Shown: positions 16,387 through 29,135, numbered from the stretch's first letter. The stretch is 64,000 nucleotides of DNA from Candidatus Hydrogenedentota bacterium (GCA_045863295.1 BTWA01000027.1:25025-89024), one strand, 5' to 3'. The notes: generated by a model not told the origin, from the sequence alone. Numbers and translations are program-made.

Positions 16387-16716
16387 CTAGAAGAATTCGA
16401 GCTGGGCTGGCGGTTCCTCTGGTGGTTTTCGGCGTTTTCCCCAGAAAACGCGCATGCGCTCAAACTGTTTTTCCGTGATGACGATAAGCCGAACCTCGCC
16501 ATCCGGGGGAAGCGATTTTTCGACACGCTTGACGTGTACATCCACATTCTCCTGACTGGGGCAGTGCCGGATATAGACCGAATACTGCATTTGCGCGAAC
16601 CCATCTTTCAACAGGCTCGTACGGAAGCGCGTGTACTCGCGCCGCGCATCCTTGGTATCCGTGGGCAAATCGAACATGGCCACTATCCACATGAAACGGT
16701 ACTTGCTAAGCTCCAT
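16387..16716 (-). CDS. cas2: CRISPR-associated endonuclease Cas2
   Basis: MWIVAMFDLP, FRTSLLKDGFAQMQYSVY, ITEKQF; between cas1 and the array. Confidence 0.95.
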   Translation of the reverse strand: MELSKYRFMWIVAMFDLPTDTKDARREYTRFRTSLLKDGFAQMQYSVYIRHCPSQENVDVHVKRVEKSLPPDGEVRLIVITEKQFERMRVFWGKRRKPPEEPPAQLEFF

Positions 16717-16722
16717 GGCCGT

Positions 16723-17625
16723 CTAATCCATGCTGGACTCCGGGATCCAAAGGTTCGAATCGCTGCCCTGAATACACCTGACCAGTGAATACGCCATTTT
16801 CTGGACGCCGTTCATCATGGGACATGTATCGCCCTCGAAAACAACCGTGCCGTGGAGGAGGCCAAGCAGTTCACTCTTCGCCTTCGGTTGAATCGTGCCG
16901 ATACCGGCCTCATCCAATTTGCGTACTGCCGCATCAACCATGGGGCGCAACGGCTCGACCAAATCATCAGCGAGGCAAAAGGCATTGGACCGATTGCAGT
17001 GGTGAATGCCGAGCGCGGTGTTGAGTCCCGCGCCCACAAGGGCGCGCGCCACACTCGCCCTCATAAGGGCATAGCCATAATTCAGCAGCGCGTTGATGCC
17101 GTCCCCATCGGGATCGCGGCGAAACGCGCGGCCCTCGCCAAGCCAATTGGCCCAGTACAGCTTCGCCGCCTGCGCTTCCATGTTTGAGGGATCCCCGGAC
17201 CGCACAGTACGGCTCATCTCCATCAACCTGCGGCGAGCCGGCGTATCGCCCCCAAGATTGCCGGCCTGCGCCCGAATCTTCGCGACCACCAATTGCCGCC
17301 ATAGGCTCTTTCGTACGGGTTTAGACAAGGCAATCTGATCATGAATGCGGGACACCACTTCGAGATGGTCTGAGAGAGGCAAAACCATGCCCACCGGCAG
17401 ATGATTCCCGCCACACAACACGACAACGGTACCATGTTTCATCAACGTTGCCAGACCATGATGCGAATACGTCACTTGCCTTTGATCGACAACGAGGGCG
17501 CCCAAATCCTCGCAGGGAATTGAAACAGGCGGCCCCTCTCGCTCAGGAAACCGCAATTCAAGCTGGTCCAATGTTGCACTGATGTACGCAGGGGCATTCG
17601 AAACCTCGACAACGCGTTTAATCAT
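16723..17625 (-). CDS. cas1: Type II CRISPR-associated endonuclease Cas1 (300 aa)
   Basis: IPCEDLG, EAQAAKLYW, NALLNYGY, LGIHH..NAFCLADDLVEPLRP; start MIKRVV overlaps the cas9 stop. Confidence 0.95.
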   Translation of the reverse strand: MIKRVVEVSNAPAYISATLDQLELRFPEREGPPVSIPCEDLGALVVDQRQVTYSHHGLATLMKHGTVVVLCGGNHLPVGMVLPLSDHLEVVSRIHDQIALSKPVRKSLWRQLVVAKIRAQAGNLGGDTPARRRLMEMSRTVRSGDPSNMEAQAAKLYWANWLGEGRAFRRDPDGDGINALLNYGYALMRASVARALVGAGLNTALGIHHCNRSNAFCLADDLVEPLRPMVDAAVRKLDEAGIGTIQPKAKSELLGLLHGTVVFEGDTCPMMNGVQKMAYSLVRCIQGSDSNLWIPESSMD

Positions 17626-20600
17626 GCTCAACCCTGATAACTGCGCCCAGCGGACTGACGCGCACCTTATAGGGGCCTTCAGACGCAGTCGGACCGCAGT
17701 TGGCCAGGTCAGCGGGCGATACAGACCAACGTTCCTGGTCTGCGGCACTGCGTGCATCCCAGTCCGGCGCCAGGACAATACTGATGCTCTTGCCATCGAG
17801 TTCAAGCTTTTTTACAACAAAATACCCAGTTTCGCTGCCTTGCTTAGGTCTTGCATGGATCATTTCCCCTTCAGCGAGCGACATAACAAACTGCAACTTG
17901 TCGCCATGATTCTTTTGAATAAGCAACGTATTCGCCGATTCGTCCACTCCTTTAAGGCGCTGGATTGCTTCATACATGCTTACACATCTGCCTGACCACC
18001 TTCCGTTGGAACGGTTCCGAAGTATTTCGACATGATGATTATTGCCCCCTATGTAAACACGCCTGGGCTTTCCGCGGGACTGAATTACAACGGGGTTCTT
18101 GATTGTGCGCAAGACTTTCACTGCAGTTATCGGCACCCCGCTCGGCATCCGAAAGGCACCCGACTCCAACAGGCGTTGTACATCCTTTGGGGAGAATTCA
18201 TCCGCGGAAAGATGGTTCGCCTGCATAATCTCACGCAGTATGCGCCGCATTTCCAAATCGCGAACCAACCCTCCCTTTCCTAGGGGCGGGTCCATAAGCA
18301 CAGTGCATCCATTATCATTCTCGATTGGAACGGGCATGCGGAGCATCTTTGGGGTCAGCTTTACGAGGGGGAGACGAGTCACAAACACCTTGGCTTCCAT
18401 ATCGACCGTTCCATACAAAGTCTCTTCATGCAATGCGCCGACAAGGCGGCGTTTCACAGGTCGGTGACATATGACCAGCCCCCGTGTTTCATTGTCACCG
18501 AAAACATGGCCCATGACTTGGGCGCGGAACGTCTCCAAACTCGTCCACGGTTTAGGAACCGGCAATGTATCGCGCTTTTGCCGCTCACCTGTCCGTTTGT
18601 AGGTCTCCTCCTGGCGTGAAGCAATATCGGCCAACTCTTTCACGATAGCGGGACCACTTAACGCGATCACGACGGCATCAATCGCGTGATGGTAATGATT
18701 CGCCCGGGTCTTCGATGCCGGCTTCGCACCGTCCTCCGATGGCGCGGCGACTTCATGATAAAGTTGCCAATCTGCGCGCAAAATTGCCGTGTACCGCCCC
18801 TTCGTGAATAGAATCTGCCGCCGGTTGCGGGGCGCATCGTGAAAGAGGGCCTCTTGAAGGTAGGCGCTCACTTCTCGCGCGGCATAGGACGTGTCCGACA
18901 ACTGAGATTCGCGCCAAGCAGCTACATCCGCCTCTTTGACATCTCTGTCTAGATTATCCCTCTTGCGCTTGAAATCCGACCGCCGAAAATAGCTGGTGTC
19001 GGATTTCGTCGGCTTGGCTAAGTGAGCAAAGCGCTGCTTAAACGTGTCAACCAACCCTTTGCGCGCTATCCACTCTTTGGCGGTCTCGTTGCCCTTGTTG
19101 CGGTTGCAATCCCTATGGCAGAGCACCCGGTTATTGAGGCCATCCTCACCGCCACGGCTCTTGGGAATTACATGGTCGACTTCAACGCCATGCCCCCGCG
19201 CAGCATCGGTGTCGGACATCTGCTGGGGGGAGTCGCAGTAGGGACAAAGCCCTTTCTGCTGGCGCCAGAGCAGAACGCGATCCTCGCCCCTGCGCCGTTG
19301 ATTCTCATTGAGATTCTCCAACTGGTAGTCTTCGGCAATTTTCTTCCTGATCTTCTCCCGTTGCCTGTTCCGCGCCAGAATCTCATTTCGCACCTTGCCG
19401 CTTTGTTTGGCCTCGCGCGCCATTTCGATCACGACCCGGTCCGGCTTACGGCCAAACCGCCGCAGATACTCATTCAAATGCCGACGCACCTCGTGAATCG
19501 CTTTGCGGACAACGGGATTGGCCAGCATGGGGGCGGGCGGCAGCACATCAGCGTGCTTTTCCATGAACCGGCGCTTGGCTTTGTTCGCGCCCCTCAGGCG
19601 CAGAAGCGCCTCGGCTTTTTGCTCGCCAACCAATTCATTCAGCAATTCAATCAAATCAGCATCAACGGTGAACGCATAGCGGGCGCGCTGTTCTGGCGTT
19701 GCGCTGCTTGCCGCATCTTTCGAGAATGCTTCGCGCGCTTCAGTAACGGAAGCCCCCAGGCGCATGTAAGGCAGTAGATTCAAGATGGCGTGCCGGGATA
19801 GACTGACTCTATTTTCCAGCTTGGGGCGTTTCTTCCATGCGTCATTAAGCTTTCCGGTGCTCTCTTCTGATAGGCCCCACCAGGCCCGGCACCCACCGGC
19901 AAGCCGCTCCCGATCTAACTTGACATCCGGATCGAACTTCTGGAGCGCCCGGTTTACGGATTCTTTGCGGCTTTCGTCGAAAGTGAACCATGTATCTTCA
20001 CCGATTGCCCCAAGTACAATTTCGCGGTAGAACCAATCGGTGTTGATCTCCCGTTCCGCATCTGAATCCGTATTCAACTCATAAAACGCGGCGACCTCGC
20101 GCCTGTTTATGCCCAAGGCCGTTCGGATTGTTTTACCGGTGGCCTTCTTCTGATTTCGGAGCGCGGCAATCACTTTCTCGCGCTCGCTGTCACTCAAGGC
20201 TCTCATTTCTTCGTCGTGCTTCCGAATACGGATATTGTTCACGTTTTCCAGAACCCGGAATTCTTGAGCGTGCATGTCAGCCATTGGGCAGCATTGATCG
20301 GTCGGCTCTAAATCACATCGGCCCATCGTTCCTGTTCGCCAATAGGACTTGCGCTGTTCAAATACAATGCCCTTGTGCCGGAAAGTGGCGTCAGGTTTGG
20401 GGTTGTCAAACTGGGTTCGAAACTCGTCGGTGAGTAATTCGGCCAGGACCCCTCCAATAGAAACCTGCTTTTGCCAGATTGCCTCAAACTCGTCCAGGAT
20501 CATCTTCCGGGTGGCGTGAAACTCGTGGCTGTCACGCCGGTTTCGAATCGAACCATGTATGGCAAATGGCTGATTTTTTCTGTTAGTAGCTGGAGTTTGC

Positions 20601-21148
20601 CTTTCCACATATAGGCGGGCCATAGTTTGGCCAAAATGTTCGTCCTGCCGCCTGACTTTTTCCAGTTTGTCGATACCAGCCTTGACGGCACCTTCTTCCT
20701 TGGACTTCCCGTCTTCCTCTTCCGCATTTTCGGCCGCTTCAGCTTCGTCCGATTCAGTGAGGATGCCAAATGCTCCTCTGCGCTGGTTCAGGTGAACCAA
20801 GAGCCGTCCAAACTCATGGGGCGTCAGCGCGCGCTGTAATGCGTCGGTCCTGAGTTCCCATGGATTTGTCCGCATCAGGTGATTGAAATCAGACTGGGTC
20901 TCTGGGAGTAGACCGTGCTCAACCAGAACCGCCCGCAGACGCTTCTTACGGCGTGCGCGCCGCTCAATAATCCTGCGCGATTGCCGCTTTGCTCTCCGCG
21001 CCTGATTCTTGGGGGCGCCGCGCTTGTTGCTGCTCTCCTCAACGCCAGCCGGGAATACACTTACACCGGCCACTATTTCCCCAGTCTCCGTATCAACCCA
21101 AGCACTGCCAACGGAGTTGCTGCCGATGTCCAAACCTATAGAAATCAT
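17618..21148 (-). CDS. cas9: Type II-C Cas9 (about 1176 aa)
   Basis: RuvC-I GLDIGSNSVG, Arg-rich bridge helix, RuvC-II IEMARE, HNH VDHVIPKS..N..N, RuvC-III HHAIDA; GGAGGC RBS before ATG 21148; no csn2 or cas4. Confidence 0.97.
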   Translation of the reverse strand: MISIGLDIGSNSVGSAWVDTETGEIVAGVSVFPAGVEESSNKRGAPKNQARRAKRQSRRIIERRARRKKRLRAVLVEHGLLPETQSDFNHLMRTNPWELRTDALQRALTPHEFGRLLVHLNQRRGAFGILTESDEAEAAENAEEEDGKSKEEGAVKAGIDKLEKVRRQDEHFGQTMARLYVERQTPATNRKNQPFAIHGSIRNRRDSHEFHATRKMILDEFEAIWQKQVSIGGVLAELLTDEFRTQFDNPKPDATFRHKGIVFEQRKSYWRTGTMGRCDLEPTDQCCPMADMHAQEFRVLENVNNIRIRKHDEEMRALSDSEREKVIAALRNQKKATGKTIRTALGINRREVAAFYELNTDSDAEREINTDWFYREIVLGAIGEDTWFTFDESRKESVNRALQKFDPDVKLDRERLAGGCRAWWGLSEESTGKLNDAWKKRPKLENRVSLSRHAILNLLPYMRLGASVTEAREAFSKDAASSATPEQRARYAFTVDADLIELLNELVGEQKAEALLRLRGANKAKRRFMEKHADVLPPAPMLANPVVRKAIHEVRRHLNEYLRRFGRKPDRVVIEMAREAKQSGKVRNEILARNRQREKIRKKIAEDYQLENLNENQRRRGEDRVLLWRQQKGLCPYCDSPQQMSDTDAARGHGVEVDHVIPKSRGGEDGLNNRVLCHRDCNRNKGNETAKEWIARKGLVDTFKQRFAHLAKPTKSDTSYFRRSDFKRKRDNLDRDVKEADVAAWRESQLSDTSYAAREVSAYLQEALFHDAPRNRRQILFTKGRYTAILRADWQLYHEVAAPSEDGAKPASKTRANHYHHAIDAVVIALSGPAIVKELADIASRQEETYKRTGERQKRDTLPVPKPWTSLETFRAQVMGHVFGDNETRGLVICHRPVKRRLVGALHEETLYGTVDMEAKVFVTRLPLVKLTPKMLRMPVPIENDNGCTVLMDPPLGKGGLVRDLEMRRILREIMQANHLSADEFSPKDVQRLLESGAFRMPSGVPITAVKVLRTIKNPVVIQSRGKPRRVYIGGNNHHVEILRNRSNGRWSGRCVSMYEAIQRLKGVDESANTLLIQKNHGDKLQFVMSLAEGEMIHARPKQGSETGYFVVKKLELDGKSISIVLAPDWDARSAADQERWSVSPADLANCGPTASEGPYKVRVSPLGAVIRVEHD

Positions 21149-21186
21149 TGCATTGCCTCCGCCCACGACGGCAATCCACTCATTTC

Positions 21187-21215
21187 TTGACACGACTAGT
21201 GTCGCATGATAGCAT
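21187..21215 (+). promoter_or_regulatory. sigma70 promoter for tracrRNA
   Basis: TTGACA(21187-92)-17 bp-TAGCAT(21210-15), with extended TG at 21207-08. Confidence 0.8.
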
Positions 21216-23334: not shown

Positions 23335-23847
23335 ATGGCCAGCAAGAAGATGATCGAGGCACTCAACAAACACGTAAACCTAGAGCTGTACTCGGCCTAC
23401 ATTTATGCTGCCATGGCGGCGTGGTTCGACGGCGAAAACATGCATGGGTTCGCCTCTTGGATGAAGGCCCAAGCCGGCGAAGAAGTCGGACATGCCGCGA
23501 AGATGTACAAATACATCCATGACGTGGACGGTCGCGTGACGCTGGAAGCCATCGAAAAGCCCCAAGATCGGTTCAAATCCCCGCTCCAAGTATTCGAAGC
23601 GGCGTATGGCCACGAAAAGGTCGTAACCAAAGCCATCTACGCTTTGGTGGATCAGGCGATAAAGGAAGGCGATCATGGAACCAATGCCTTCCTGCAATGG
23701 TTCGTCAATGAGCAAATCGAGGAAGAGGCCACGGCCTCCGATGTTGTGGGCCGGCTGAAAATGGCCGGAGATGCTCCGGGAGCGTTGTTGCTTCTTGACC
23801 GGGAAATGGGCGGCCGATCCGCCGGAGCCGGCGAATCCGAAGAATAG
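23335..23847 (+). CDS. ftn: Non-heme ferritin
   Basis: NLELYSAYIY, QAGEEVGHA, LQWFVNEQIEEE ferroxidase motifs; AGGAG RBS. Confidence 0.92.
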   Translation: MASKKMIEALNKHVNLELYSAYIYAAMAAWFDGENMHGFASWMKAQAGEEVGHAAKMYKYIHDVDGRVTLEAIEKPQDRFKSPLQVFEAAYGHEKVVTKAIYALVDQAIKEGDHGTNAFLQWFVNEQIEEEATASDVVGRLKMAGDAPGALLLLDREMGGRSAGAGESEE

Positions 23848-23979: not shown

Positions 23980-24017
23980 TTGACAATTCCTGTGTTCATT
24001 TCCTACACTATTGTCAA
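23980..24017 (+). promoter_or_regulatory. Putative sigma70 promoter of the NifA-like gene, bracketed by an inverted repeat
   Basis: TTGACA(23980-85)-18 bp-TACACT(24004-09); TTGACAAT/ATTGTCAA inverted repeat. Confidence 0.6.
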
Positions 24018-24068
24018 TTCAACTAAGGAGCCATACCTTTCGGTGAAGTAGCCGGAAGGTTTTTCTAT

Positions 24069-25637
24069 ATGGGAACAAGACAATCCTATCCAAAAATACG
24101 GCGCGACGTTTCTGAACTAGCGCTTTTGTTCGAGATAAGCCAGATCTTGGAAAGAAGTCTGGACCTGCGCGACGAGATGGGGCACGTGCTGAGCGCCATT
24201 TCCGATAATACCGGTATGATGCGCGGCACCATTACGCTACTCAACCGCCATACCCACGAAATTTTCATTGAGGCCGCACATGGGCTTTCCACCACCCAGC
24301 GTGAGCGGGGTCGATACAGGCCCGGAGAAGGCATCACCGGGAGGGTTGTAGAAACCGGCCGACCCATCGCGGTACCTCGGATTTCTCAAGAACCGGCATT
24401 CCTGGACAAGACCCGTTCTAGAACCGAGCTTCAAAGGGACGAAATCTCCTTTATTTGCGTACCCATCAAGATCGGAAACGAGACCATTGGAGCCCTCAGC
24501 GTGGATCGGCTCTTTTCCGACACGGTGTCATTAGATGAAGACATGCGTCTTGTGACCATTATCGCGTCGATGATCGCCCAGGCCGTACGAATTCGCCAAC
24601 GCGCCCAAGAAGAGCGTATGGCGTTGCTACAAGAGAACATGCGACTTCAAAACGAGCTGAAGGAGCGGTTTCGCCCCGCGAATATCATTGGATCTTCCAG
24701 GGCGATGCAAAAAGTATACGATCTTATACAACAGGTGGCTCAAAGCGATGCCACGGTACTTATCCGCGGTGAGAGCGGTGTAGGTAAGGAACTTGTTGCC
24801 AGCGCCATACACTACAACAGTTCACGTGCCAATTCTGCGTTCATCAAAGTCAATTGCGCGGCGTTGCCTGAAGCCGTTATCGAAAGTGAGTTATTCGGTC
24901 ACGAAAAAGGCGCTTTTACGGGGGCCGTAAACCAACGCAAAGGGCGATTTGAACTTGCCCACGGCGGGACGATATTTCTGGATGAAATAGGGGATTTGTC
25001 ACCCACCATGCAGGTTCGCCTGCTTCGGGTATTGCAGGAGCGGGAATTCGAGCGGGTTGGCGGAACAGATACCATTCGCGTGGATGTACGTGTAATTACG
25101 GCTACCAACCGTGACCTGGAAGTCGCGATGACAAAAGAGGAGTTTCGGCAGGACCTCTATTACCGCCTGAACGTTTTTCCCATTCATATTCCGCCGCTTC
25201 GAGAACGGAAGACGGACATTCTGGAATTGGCGAACTTTTTCGTTGAGAAGTACAGCCAGAAAGCCCATAAAAACGTGCGACGTATCTCGACGCCGGCCAT
25301 AGACATGCTCAGCAGCTATCATTGGCCCGGCAATGTCCGTGAGCTGGAAAATGTCATAGAACGCGCGGTGCTTTTGACGAACGACGATGTTGTACACGGC
25401 CATCATCTTCCCCCCACATTACAGACCGCTGAAGCCAGCGGAACCATAATGGAAGGCACTCTCGACGCTACACTTAACAATGTCGAGCGCGAAATGATTA
25501 TCGAGGCGCTCAAGAATGCTCGCGGGAATAAAGCCAAGGCTGCATCGGCCCTCGGTATTACCGAGCGCATTATGGGTTTACGGGTCAGAAAACACTCCAT
25601 TGATACCCGAATGTATCGTTCTGCCAAGATTGTTTAG
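24069..25637 (+). CDS. NifA-like sigma54-dependent activator (GAF-AAA+-Fis HTH)
   Basis: GAF ('[11 protein letters not shown]', 'SFICVPI'), [44 protein letters not shown]. Confidence 0.93.
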
Positions 25638-25882
25638 TGCGGGACTCCGCCTCATGTCCCTATATTTCCTACCGATTTGTTGTATCCCATCATTTCAAAG
25701 GAACATCCCTGTCGATTCTTCCACTTGTCTCGGCGTTTGCGCCGGATTTCCCTGATTGCGATTTTAATCTCGCCGGAAAGTCCACAAAATACTTATTTGT
25801 ATAAACTTATGTTAAGTATTTCGCATATGTTTCAGGTATTCCTACGTGTTGCATAACCCTAAAATCACGTATGCTTTGGCGT

Positions 25883-25898
25883 TGGCACGTCTATTGCT
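25883..25898 (+). promoter_or_regulatory. sigma54 (-24/-12) promoter
   Basis: TGGCAC-GTCTA-TTGCT, consensus with correct spacing. Confidence 0.88.
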
Positions 25899-25921
25899 GG
25901 TTTGGCTATCAGGAGTACAAC

Positions 25922-26905
25922 ATGGTTGCCTATCATCGGGCTGACTCGTCCCATCATGTCGACCCGGTGCCCGTTTCAGCTGCGGTCAGGGCTGTGGACG
26001 ACCTCATTGCGCAGTTTGCCAAGGGTAGCACACCCATATTGATACGAGGTGAAAGGGGTACCCGGAAAGAGGATATTGCGCGCGCCATCCATGTGCGGAG
26101 CCCGCAAGCGGATGGTCCTTTTATAAAGGTAAGTTGGGCGGAAGTAACCGAGTCCTTCGTGGAAGGAGAACTCTTTGGCTACAGTGAACCGACGGCCGCG
26201 ATGGCCCTGTTATCCAAGCGGGGAAAATTTCAGGAAGCGGAAAAGGGGACCCTGTATCTTGAGGAAGTAAGCGACTTTTCAGCATCTACCCAAGGAAAGC
26301 TTTTGCGCTTCATTCGGAACGAGGGCTTGCAGCCTCTTGGGGCCATTTCTCCGGTCGATGTCGATGTCCGACTTATATTGGCCAGCAGTCAAGACTTGGA
26401 GCAATTGGTTGAACGAGGAAAGGTGCTCCGGGAACTCGTGGAAGAATTGTCGGCCTTTTCGATCCAGATTCCACCTCTGCGAGATAGGAAAACAGACATA
26501 TTAAGCCTGGCGCAGCAATTCGTGCGTAAGCATGCACAGAAAGTGCGCAAGCCCACCCAACACATTTCCTCTCGTGCCATGAGTCTTCTTGTCAGTCATA
26601 CATGGCCAGGCAATCTCGTGGAGTTGGAGCAGTGCATGGAGCGTGCGGTGCTGCTTTGTGACGAGAGTGTCATTGACGTCCGGCACTTACCTCCTGCGTT
26701 ACAGGAGCTGAATACGCAAGAAATTCAAGGAGAAACGCTTCAGGATACTCTCGATATCATTGAGCGTGCGCTCATTTTGGACGCCCTGCGCGCAGCCAAA
26801 GGAAACCGATCCCGAGCGGCCCAGATATTGGGGATAACCGAGCGATTGATGGGCCTTCGGGTCCGAAAATATTGCATCGATCCAAGGGAATTCCGTACAA
26901 AATAG
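25922..26905 (+). CDS. Degenerate sigma54-activator-like AAA+-HTH protein (327 aa; no sensor domain, ATPase and GAFTGA motifs lost)
   Basis: AGGAG RBS at 25911; colinear with the upstream activator but GERGTRKE, EPTAAMA, YLEEV, VLRELVEEL, WPGNLVEL; HTH conserved. Confidence 0.85.
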   Translation: MVAYHRADSSHHVDPVPVSAAVRAVDDLIAQFAKGSTPILIRGERGTRKEDIARAIHVRSPQADGPFIKVSWAEVTESFVEGELFGYSEPTAAMALLSKRGKFQEAEKGTLYLEEVSDFSASTQGKLLRFIRNEGLQPLGAISPVDVDVRLILASSQDLEQLVERGKVLRELVEELSAFSIQIPPLRDRKTDILSLAQQFVRKHAQKVRKPTQHISSRAMSLLVSHTWPGNLVELEQCMERAVLLCDESVIDVRHLPPALQELNTQEIQGETLQDTLDIIERALILDALRAAKGNRSRAAQILGITERLMGLRVRKYCIDPREFRTK

Positions 26906-27253
26906 TACTTTTGCTTCAAAAATGTGCTGACAATTGAGGTTTTGGAGGTACGCTATTATTTTTGATAATATAGTTAAAGCTACAATTTTGTATGTTCAGT
27001 AATTAATATTGAAGCTTATAAACCGTTTTATGCGCTAAATTTCAATAATTTATAATATAGTCAAATATATTAATTCCAATGCTTGTTATAGCATAATGTA
27101 ACAAAATACCATCTGGTAATTATCAAATTACTCCATTTCTACCATAATGTAGTCTTTCTTGCTGTCCACAGAAATGCCCTTTTCGGCAACGTATTTCGCA
27201 AGGTGTTCGTATTGAAATAGTTAGGAATCGCCTTTCCAGCACGGATCCATGGA

Positions 27254-27269
27254 TGGCACATCGATTGCT
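27254..27269 (+). promoter_or_regulatory. sigma54 (-24/-12) promoter of amtB-PII
   Basis: TGGCAC-ATCGA-TTGCT upstream of amtB. Confidence 0.88.
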
Positions 27270-27349: not shown

Positions 27350-28750
27350 ATGCGAAGCAGAATCAAATTGCCAATCCCCGCCCTCTTGGTGGTGGCTGTT
27401 CTGCTGGCGCTAGCGCCGGCAGTGTTTGCCCAGGAAGAGGCGGCCGCACCGCCACCCAGTGAAGTCGAAGTCCTTACAACGAATTTGAACATTGTCTGGA
27501 CGTGCGTCGCTGCATTTCTGGTTATGTTTATGCAGGCTGGATTTGCCTTGGTGGAACTGGGTTTGACGCGCGCGAAGAATGGTATCAACATCATGATGAA
27601 GAACCTGATGGACTTTTGCATCGGTTCGGTCGGCTTCTTCATGATTGGCTATGCGTTGATGTTCGGTCCTACCAATGGGTTCTTCGGCACCGAAGGATTC
27701 TTCTTAAGCGCCATTGACTACAGCAGCGAATCGCCGTTTACGGATTGGAATTGGACATTTCTAATTTTCCAAACCGTGTTCTGCGCTACTGCCGCCACTA
27801 TCGTGTCTGGCGCCATGGCCGAGCGGACCAAGTTTGTCGCCTATCTTTTGTATAGCGCTGCCATAAGTATCGTCATTTATCCCATTTCCGGTTCGTGGGC
27901 GTGGGGAGGGCTCTTGAACGGCGGAGGGTGGCTGGAAGCGCCGGAAGGCGGCTTTCTCGCAAACGCGGGGCTTCCGGGTTTCTGCGACTTCGCGGGCTCA
28001 ACTGTTGTGCACTCGGTGGGTGGCTGGCTCGCGCTGGCTGGCGCGATCGTGCTTGGTCCGCGCACCGGTAAGTATGGTCCCGACGGAACGCCGCGGGCCT
28101 TGCCCGGTCACAACATTCCCTTGGTGGCTTTGGGTGTCTTTATCTTGTGGTTGGGTTGGTTCGGTTTCAATCCCGGATCGGCGACGACCGGCGACGGCAC
28201 GATTGGCTATGTAGCCGTTACGACCAACCTTGCCGCGGCGTGTGGCGCGATCAGCGCGATGATTACGGCTTGGATTATCTTCAAGAAACCGGAAGCAACC
28301 ATGACTTTAAACGGTGCATTAGCCGGACTCGTGTCAATAACGGCGCCGTGCTACACGGTCAGCCCATTGGGTGCGTGCGCGATAGGTCTTATTGGCGGCG
28401 TCCTGGTGGTCATTTCAGTGATTGTGATTGATCGCGTTATCAAGATCGACGACCCAGTAGGCGCGGTTAGCGTTCACGGGGTGTGCGGCGTATGGGGCAC
28501 TTTGGCGTGCGGCCTGTTCAATCTGGAAGGAGGGCTGATTTACGGCGGCGGCGCGAAACAGTTGATCACTCAGCTTATAGGCGCTGGCGCCTTCTTCGTG
28601 TGGGCGTTTGGCCTGGGCTTGATTCTCTTCTTCATTCTCAAAATGACGGTCGGTCTGCGTGTGAGCGCGGAAGAAGAGTTGAAGGGTCTGGATATCGGCG
28701 AACACGGTATGGAGGCCTACAACGGATTCCAGATCTTCACAACGCAATGA
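27350..28750 (+). CDS. amtB: Ammonium transporter
   Basis: [47 protein letters not shown]. Confidence 0.96.
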
Positions 28751-28793: not shown

Positions 28794-29135
28794 ATGAAAC
28801 TGGTGATAGCCTATGTGCAACCAGACAAACTAAACGCCGTGAAGCAGGCGCTGCAAAGCAATTCAATTTCCAAGATGTCCGTAACAAACGCCCTTGGATG
28901 CGGCCAGCAAGGCGGGTATCACGAGAGCTACCGAGGTACAGATATCGAGGTAAATCTGCTGAAGAAGGTCCGTTTCGAAGTTGCGGTCAACGACGATTTT
29001 GTGAAGCCCACGATCGACGCGATTATCAAAGGCGCGAAAACCGGTGAGATAGGCGACGGCAAGATCTTCGTGTTGAATCTTGAACAATGCGTCCGGATCC
29101 GGACAGGCGAGGCAGGCTCGGCCGCTATCGGCTGA
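28794..29135 (+). CDS. glnK: P-II nitrogen regulator (GlnK-type, linked to amtB)
   Basis: GCGQQ..YRG T-loop, [17 protein letters not shown]. Confidence 0.9.

Follow-up and report, generated by a model that had tools for sequence, protein, structure and literature searches.

Why would a bacterium keep, between a sigma54 activator of the NifA family and the ammonium transport operon amtB-glnK, a second activator-like gene whose product has lost the motifs that define such activators? The question is raised by a stretch of 64,000 nucleotides from Candidatus Hydrogenedentota bacterium (GCA_045863295.1 BTWA01000027.1:25025-89024), referred to here in its entirety as the window. The first-pass annotation of this DNA saw in the second gene a catalytically dead twin of the activator, induced by it from a sigma54 promoter and damping amtB-glnK expression in return. 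The features of the locus, counted from the first letter of the window, are the following.

23980..24009, plus strand: candidate sigma70-type promoter of the activator gene (TTGACA-18-TACACT, 10/12 consensus positions)
24002..24017, no strand: weak palindrome, scoring 5.5, that lies across the -10 box of the activator gene; candidate autorepression site
24069..25637, plus strand: GAF-AAA+-HTH sigma54 activator of the NifA family, 522 aa, catalytic motifs all intact
25668..25683, no strand: candidate upstream activator site of the dead paralog gene (one mismatch, score 10.2)
25883..25898, plus strand: sigma54 -24/-12 promoter of the dead paralog gene (consensus match)
25911..25915, plus strand: AGGAG ribosome-binding site of the dead paralog gene, read from the sequence
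25922..26905, plus strand: pseudo-ATPase paralog ("dead paralog"), 327 aa, an AAA+ shell and a Fis-type HTH without sensor domain
26979..26994, no strand: distal palindrome before amtB (score 12.3)
27105..27153, no strand: tandem palindromes before amtB, 33 nt apart (weak at 27105-27120, perfect core at 27138-27153)
27254..27269, plus strand: sigma54 -24/-12 promoter of amtB-glnK (consensus match)
27350..28750, plus strand: amtB ammonium transporter (TIGR00836, above cut-off)
28794..29135, plus strand: PII protein in the glnK position (PF00543)

Just upstream of the activator lies a ferritin gene with a strong terminator (23335-23847), a neighbour that the activator lacks in the related loci examined. 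A ten-pair hairpin with a T run (24035-24060) directly precedes the activator start codon, where attenuation or translational control is possible. Elsewhere in the window, the minus strand of 16387-21193 holds three ORFs resembling cas9, cas1 and cas2.

An activator and its disarmed paralog

The activator has the GAF-AAA+-HTH architecture of NifA and scores 557 bits against the NifA model TIGR01817 (cut-off 529). In alignment its recognition helix is unlike that of Azotobacter NifA, and the activator is 45% identical to a plasmid-borne Desulfovibrio protein. The source genome (6.3 Mb, 96% complete) holds rpoN, GlnD and four PII-family matches; unlike NifA systems, it yields no match over cut-off for nifH or NifL in a search with family models. 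With nifH missing, the "NifA" of the window probably acts as a general, NtrC-like regulator of nitrogen genes, doing the job of NtrC. The claim that the module works without NtrBC or NifL stands insofar as neither NtrC nor NifL is found over family cut-offs in this genome, but receiver-type activators encoded there reach as much as 460 bits with the NtrC model, so that a divergent NtrC is possible. The same genome encodes a second activator-like ORF (a 559-aa frame at G000:C6:57189-58865, L238) that fits none of the four patterns for canonical motifs and whose helix differs, and in three other genomes of the phylum (L139, L141 and L143) a second, more distant NifA-like protein adjoins divergent PII gene pairs.

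Both reading frames at the locus are intact and their products share 45% identity. An alternative start of the paralog at 25871 was discarded, since it would overlap the promoter and since orthologs start at the position corresponding to 25922. The paralog matches PF00158, PF25601 and PF02954 over cut-off; the domain search found neither a GAF nor any other sensor domain, and the N-terminus is a short, low-confidence tail. A structure model (pLDDT 83) matches an NtrC1 chain with a TM score of 0.90 and an rmsd of 2.2, while its top fold match, NtrX, reflects the shared fold only. The missing GAF domain, the AGGAG site and the intact frame had all been described correctly by the first-pass annotation, and so had the motif losses GAFTGA>PTAAMA, FLDE>YLEE, FRQDLYYRL>LRELVEEL and VREL>LVEL, each of which recurs in our alignment. 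Its reading of Walker A (GESGVGKE>GERGTRKE) needs a correction. The change is real, but the S>R replacement is no defect by itself, because an otherwise intact activator-type ORF in the same genome carries GERGTGK; the damage is G239>R, with the lysine kept. Walker A GK, Walker B DE, the switch Asn, sensor I, the Arg fingers and sensor II are all disrupted in the window's paralog. The recognition-helix segment, by contrast, is identical to that of the activator at 12/13 residues, as had been noted, and is common to only these two among the 26 activator-like ORFs of the genome, the others reaching 5/13 at most.

Paralog residues were matched to PspF numbers by spacing, a correspondence that is presumed here. 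When 25 rows of the dead family are compared with 50 activator rows, the F and T of GAFTGA are kept in 0/25 dead rows, and likewise the sensor I Asn, the sensor II Arg and the switch Asn (0/25 each). Walker B DE remains in 1/25 and Walker A GK in 8/25; of the trans-acting arginines, R360 is found in 1/25 and R366, the Arg finger, in 5/25, and no dead row retains more than two of five motifs. These residues serve ATP hydrolysis or sigma54 contact (PMC12054792, PMC7175178; papers are cited by PMC number for the portion of their text available). The share of activator-conserved positions that survive in the dead rows rises from 45% in the core and 61% in the lid to 92% in the HTH and 99% in the recognition segment. 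Newly conserved residues cluster directly ahead of the lost loop (C263>W in 18/25, A265>E in 18/25, V270>F/Y in 25/25), and the main text of the NorR paper offers no residue mapping onto them. E235, G237, the family-typical R236 (20/25) and an E-E pattern in Walker B are conserved as well; nucleotide-pocket residues differ widely between members. To judge from these sequences, the dead paralog is not a canonical sigma54 activator: the fold is present and the defining motifs are absent.

An old family under purifying selection

The 25 dead rows comprise 13 short relatives from a protein search, seven from a profile search, four taken from loci and the window's own protein. In a quick tree of 81 rows they form one clade with a support of 100, outside the Hydrogenedentota activators. 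A long-branch artefact was considered and dismissed, as eight other degenerate long-branch proteins stayed outside the dead clade in quick trees. The word "twin" does not hold, and neither does a recent duplication: a sister relation of the window's activator and dead paralog is rejected (p-AU 3e-68, 36-row set), while the topology test leaves room for a duplication at the base of the order (p 0.27). The dead paralog represents an old, conserved Hydrogenedentota family, neither debris nor a recent twin.

The eight outsiders (P0229, P0272, P0186, P0241, P0268, P0197, P0205 and P0245) are themselves NifA-like proteins with activation motifs partly or fully lost. Most have 480-510 aa, so the N-terminal domain is probably kept, and those with a named source come from Acidobacteriota, Myxococcales and Lentisphaerota. 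Their position outside the dead clade suggests repeated, separate disarming.

An activator-type match at E 1e-90 or better is present in 112/135 genomes of the phylum and the dead gene in 12/135, spread over six genera and two families. All 12 also hold the activator, and about 100 of the 112 activator-bearing genomes are without the dead gene. A second search of the phylum with a wider alignment, in which the best 16 candidates per genome were scored and 772 weaker matches lay beyond, returned the same 12 genomes. Of 27 activator-only loci, 23 include enough flanking DNA to judge, and in these no dead gene follows the activator. Beyond the phylum set, no dead-family gene was seen among the 80 loci listed by a metagenome scan with at least 80 matching; among the best 80 of 362 from a GTDB-wide pattern scan, dead genes occurred only in loci also in the phylum set; and an atlas search returned generic sigma54-family clusters only. 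The gene order proposed from the window alone is shared by relatives to a large part: the activator lies directly upstream of the dead gene at 9/12 loci (two contigs break there and one locus is rearranged) and amtB-glnK downstream at 7/12 (it is not adjacent at 4/12, and one contig ends).

Absent or neutrally decaying orthologs had been named as findings that would speak against the proposal. Orthologs exist in the 12 genomes, and none of the genomic matches contains an internal stop codon. In three pairs sharing no genome, dN/dS is 0.083, 0.070 and 0.083 for the whole dead gene, 0.083, 0.069 and 0.108 for the core, and 0.030, 0.045 and 0.051 for the HTH, and purifying selection on the core is significant in each (Fisher p 2e-15, 5e-32 and 2e-12). 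Among ten pairs, the eight that are unsaturated range from 0.07 to 0.23; both pairs that include the window's genome are saturated at synonymous sites, and the selection figures come from its relatives. The AAA+ and HTH part of the activator gives 0.013 and 0.016 in two of the three pairs; compared with it, the core of the dead paralog is relaxed, yet far from neutral. The expectation of a constrained HTH beside relaxed ATPase motifs was therefore right about the former, but the ATPase core is constrained too. Purifying selection acts on the dead family, its ATPase core included.

A shared palindrome and a predicted nitrogen regulon

The sigma54 consensus TGGCAC-N5-TTGCT occurs at 25883 and 27254, two matches against 0.08 expected, a number reached in 1/100 shuffles. 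A sigma54-like promoter, as first noticed in the window, precedes the dead gene at 12/12 loci, nine of them strict and three with one change. Within 260 nt upstream of it, CTAC-N6-GTAG is found at 11/11 loci, nine of them perfect (one near-identical genome was left out, and the genomes are kin), where chance would supply 0.045 per 260 nt with one mismatch and 0.0015 for perfect copies; since the palindrome was first spotted by eye in these very loci, the count is no independent test. The same palindrome stands before amtB at 6/6 loci, and the idea of sites shared by the two promoters is thus upheld for predicted sites. Compared with the sites of its relatives (118-152 nt), the window's own dead-gene site is weaker and more distant, lying about 215 nt upstream of the promoter.

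Independent checks come from a score matrix. Trained without the window's genome, it finds four tandem pairs in that genome, 31-32 nt apart. Among 74 activator loci without a dead gene, 26 have a sigma54 consensus downstream (some are close kin, and several belong to other phyla), and the matrix scores above 9 at 18/26 of these activator-adjacent promoters against 0/26 coding control windows. These checks suggest that CTAC-N6-GTAG is likely the site of the activator family. Tandem palindromes accompany the following genes.

G000:C68:7238-9385 (L242): glnB-glnA, predicted regulon member, with tandem palindromes and a sigma54-like site upstream
G000:C14:128150-130535 (L234): second glnK-amtB, predicted regulon member, with tandem palindromes and a sigma54-like site upstream
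G000:C4:234073-239652 (L240): two divergent genes, likely regulon members, with strong tandem palindromes between them, near a third sigma54 site

The divergent genes look like what we take to be circularly permuted ATP-grasp and alpha-E proteins. A tandem pair on contig C18 was discarded as a chance match, as it overlaps a tRNA-like stretch recognised by eye. The PII protein at 28794-29135 has Ile where the uridylylated Tyr51 would be expected (presumably the modified position in PII proteins), and the PII protein at L234:5886-6278 has Tyr. Most relatives' activator genes carry a strong palindrome in their own promoter region, and that of the window is weak; sigma70-like sites show no excess in the locus (7 matches against 5.1 expected), the activator's candidate being the best of the seven. 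The target that the first-pass annotation had named, amtB-glnK, does bear palindromes and a sigma54 promoter, but the predicted regulon is likely wider, taking in glnB-glnA, the second glnK-amtB and the activator's own promoter. The site pair before amtB outscores that before the dead gene in 6/7 genomes, a ranking that is circular in that the matrix was trained on those sites and in which three genomes are near-identical.

A candidate brake and its alternatives

In a single clade under purifying selection, the activation motifs are lost, the recognition helix is kept, and both promoter and palindrome are conserved. The palindrome is very probably the site of the activator family, and the activator would drive amtB-glnK, glnB-glnA, the second glnK-amtB and the dead gene. 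The dead paralog very probably reads the same site and should be unable to open a sigma54 promoter itself; being predicted unable to activate, it would lower output. The net effect is plausibly inhibitory, mainly through occupation of enhancer sites by a homodimer or by a heterodimer with the activator, and the dead paralog perhaps also helps to repress the activator's own promoter. If the weaker site pairs at its promoter matter, the dead gene might be delayed relative to amtB, as would follow from the higher score of the amtB pair. We moderately favor the reading that the dead paralog is an activator-induced, sensor-less competitor for the activator's sites, and hence a device of negative feedback. 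Its extension to the whole family, in which pseudo-ATPase enhancer-binding proteins (EBPs) would be activator-induced decoys that seize enhancers and shut the NtrC-independent nitrogen regulon of the phylum, we consider an even bet.

The conservation gradient agrees best with competition for sites. Mixed rings may also be poisoned, but this reading has less support because the ring-interface arginines are mostly lost, which makes it the weaker half of the original proposal. Pure site competition needs the HTH only, yet the AAA+ core is under selection, so the core would have a further role; some protein contact is suggested, and it is here that two rival explanations find their footing. Two observations speak against a brake: known pairs of paralogs with common sites mostly co-activate (PMC9542535, PMC3105312), and PspF mixed 1:1 with one of its loop variants retained 55% activity (PMC3467059). 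Resting activators are known to repress (PMC12754779).

The dead paralog could instead be a co-activating partner that, bound at the enhancer, either scaffolds the activator or relieves it of repression, through hetero-oligomers or by titrating the activator's GAF domain, in a loop of positive feedback. A core that keeps its fold and is under selection would suit such a partner, as would the new conserved residues 263, 265 and 270 next to the lost loop. There are precedents for paralogs that share sites or lie in tandem, as here for predicted sites, in VnfA1/VnfA3, HrpR/HrpS, RedR1/RedR2 and FleQ/FleT; vnfA3 is induced by VnfA1, and the two share sites and co-activate (PMC9542535). These pairs co-activate, whereas here one partner has lost the whole sigma54-contact motif; HrpR and HrpS each keep a GAFTG-like motif (PMC3105312). 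Loss of R360, R366 and sensor II should moreover harm any ring that contains the subunit (roles in PMC12054792), and most relatives run the regulon without the dead gene. We regard co-activation as unlikely on this balance. A shade less likely still is an atypical EBP with a separate function: induced when nitrogen is limiting, it would activate or repress sigma70 promoters in the manner of VpsR, TyrR or NtrX, and a small ligand bound in its altered nucleotide pocket might act as a gate. The conserved E235, R236, G237 and Walker B E-E pattern speak for it, together with the one weak palindrome lying across a sigma70-like -10 box upstream of the activator and a top fold match to NtrX that reflects a shared fold only. 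TyrR, HupR, PhhR, HsfA and NtrX have sensor domains. VpsR has a receiver domain (PMC6158489), whereas the dead paralog has no sensor at all. These six atypical EBPs combine AAA+ and HTH without GAFTGA, some with altered Walker motifs, as is the case here; such proteins act at sigma70 promoters, and NtrX represses (PMC6158489). They act on their own targets, however, whereas the dead paralog keeps the living activator's helix; the lack of divergence of this helix along long branches points to the activator's sites as its targets rather than to new ones. Unlike theirs, its gene stands under a sigma54 promoter with the activator's predicted site; its pocket residues differ widely among members, and the locus has no excess of sigma70-like sites. 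Long branches and a patchy presence in 12/135 genomes would suit a decaying duplicate without function, but 0/12 matches with an internal stop, the low dN/dS of the eight unsaturated pairs, the conserved promoter, site and helix and the rejection of a recent duplication already contradict functionless decay for the dead family, and we give it very little credence. The one sequencing run that turned up in a search for RNA, with a small share, is probably DNA and does not cover the dead gene.

A brake of the favored kind, acting by competition for the activator's sites, has partial counterparts. NifL, PspA, HrpV and FleN exert negative control on a sigma54 activator in trans, as is proposed here; they have unrelated folds and bind the activator, whereas the dead paralog is a homolog predicted to act via a DNA site. 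To our knowledge, the known brakes on sigma54 activators are either unrelated proteins or built-in sensor domains. The principle resembles that of TrlR, a defective TraR paralog of Agrobacterium that is inducible and blocks the activator via inactive dimers (PMC3907764), although TrlR belongs to the LuxR family and is without a DNA-binding domain, the best-kept part of the dead paralog. The VnfA site, GT(T/A)C-N6-GTAC, has the same geometry as CTAC-N6-GTAG, and negative regulation by hetero-oligomers is raised there as a possibility (PMC9542535). In Desulfovibrio, DVU1949 is predicted to control nitrogen operons and is not a response regulator, and the predicted sites of DVUA0143 include CTAC-N6-GTAG forms, like the predicted site of the window's activator (PMC4641369). 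The available portion of that paper describes no dead paralog. As for the names, the DNA-binding sequence labelled DVU1949 in one of its supplements matches the plasmid-encoded protein (L239:1477-3024), and the labels may be swapped.

A literature search at the level of listings and opening lines of abstracts returned no description of the dead family or of an induced, disarmed decoy among bacterial EBPs. The accessible text of a Hydrogenedentota genome paper (PMC10866078) does not mention NifA or amt, and that of a sigma54 survey (PMC12316311) does not mention the phylum. Surveys that keep only proteins with GAFTGA drop such paralogs (PMC12316311), and annotation files them as ordinary activators; databases name several dead-family members "Nif-specific regulatory protein". 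For an uncultured phylum in which a "NifA" exists without nitrogenase, the analysis yields a predicted nitrogen regulon and a predicted binding site. If the proposal is true, the modes of sigma54 control would gain one more, a disarmed and induced homolog with its DNA-reading helix retained, and disarmed NifA-like proteins, which apparently emerged independently in other phyla too, may represent a recurring and overlooked form of it.
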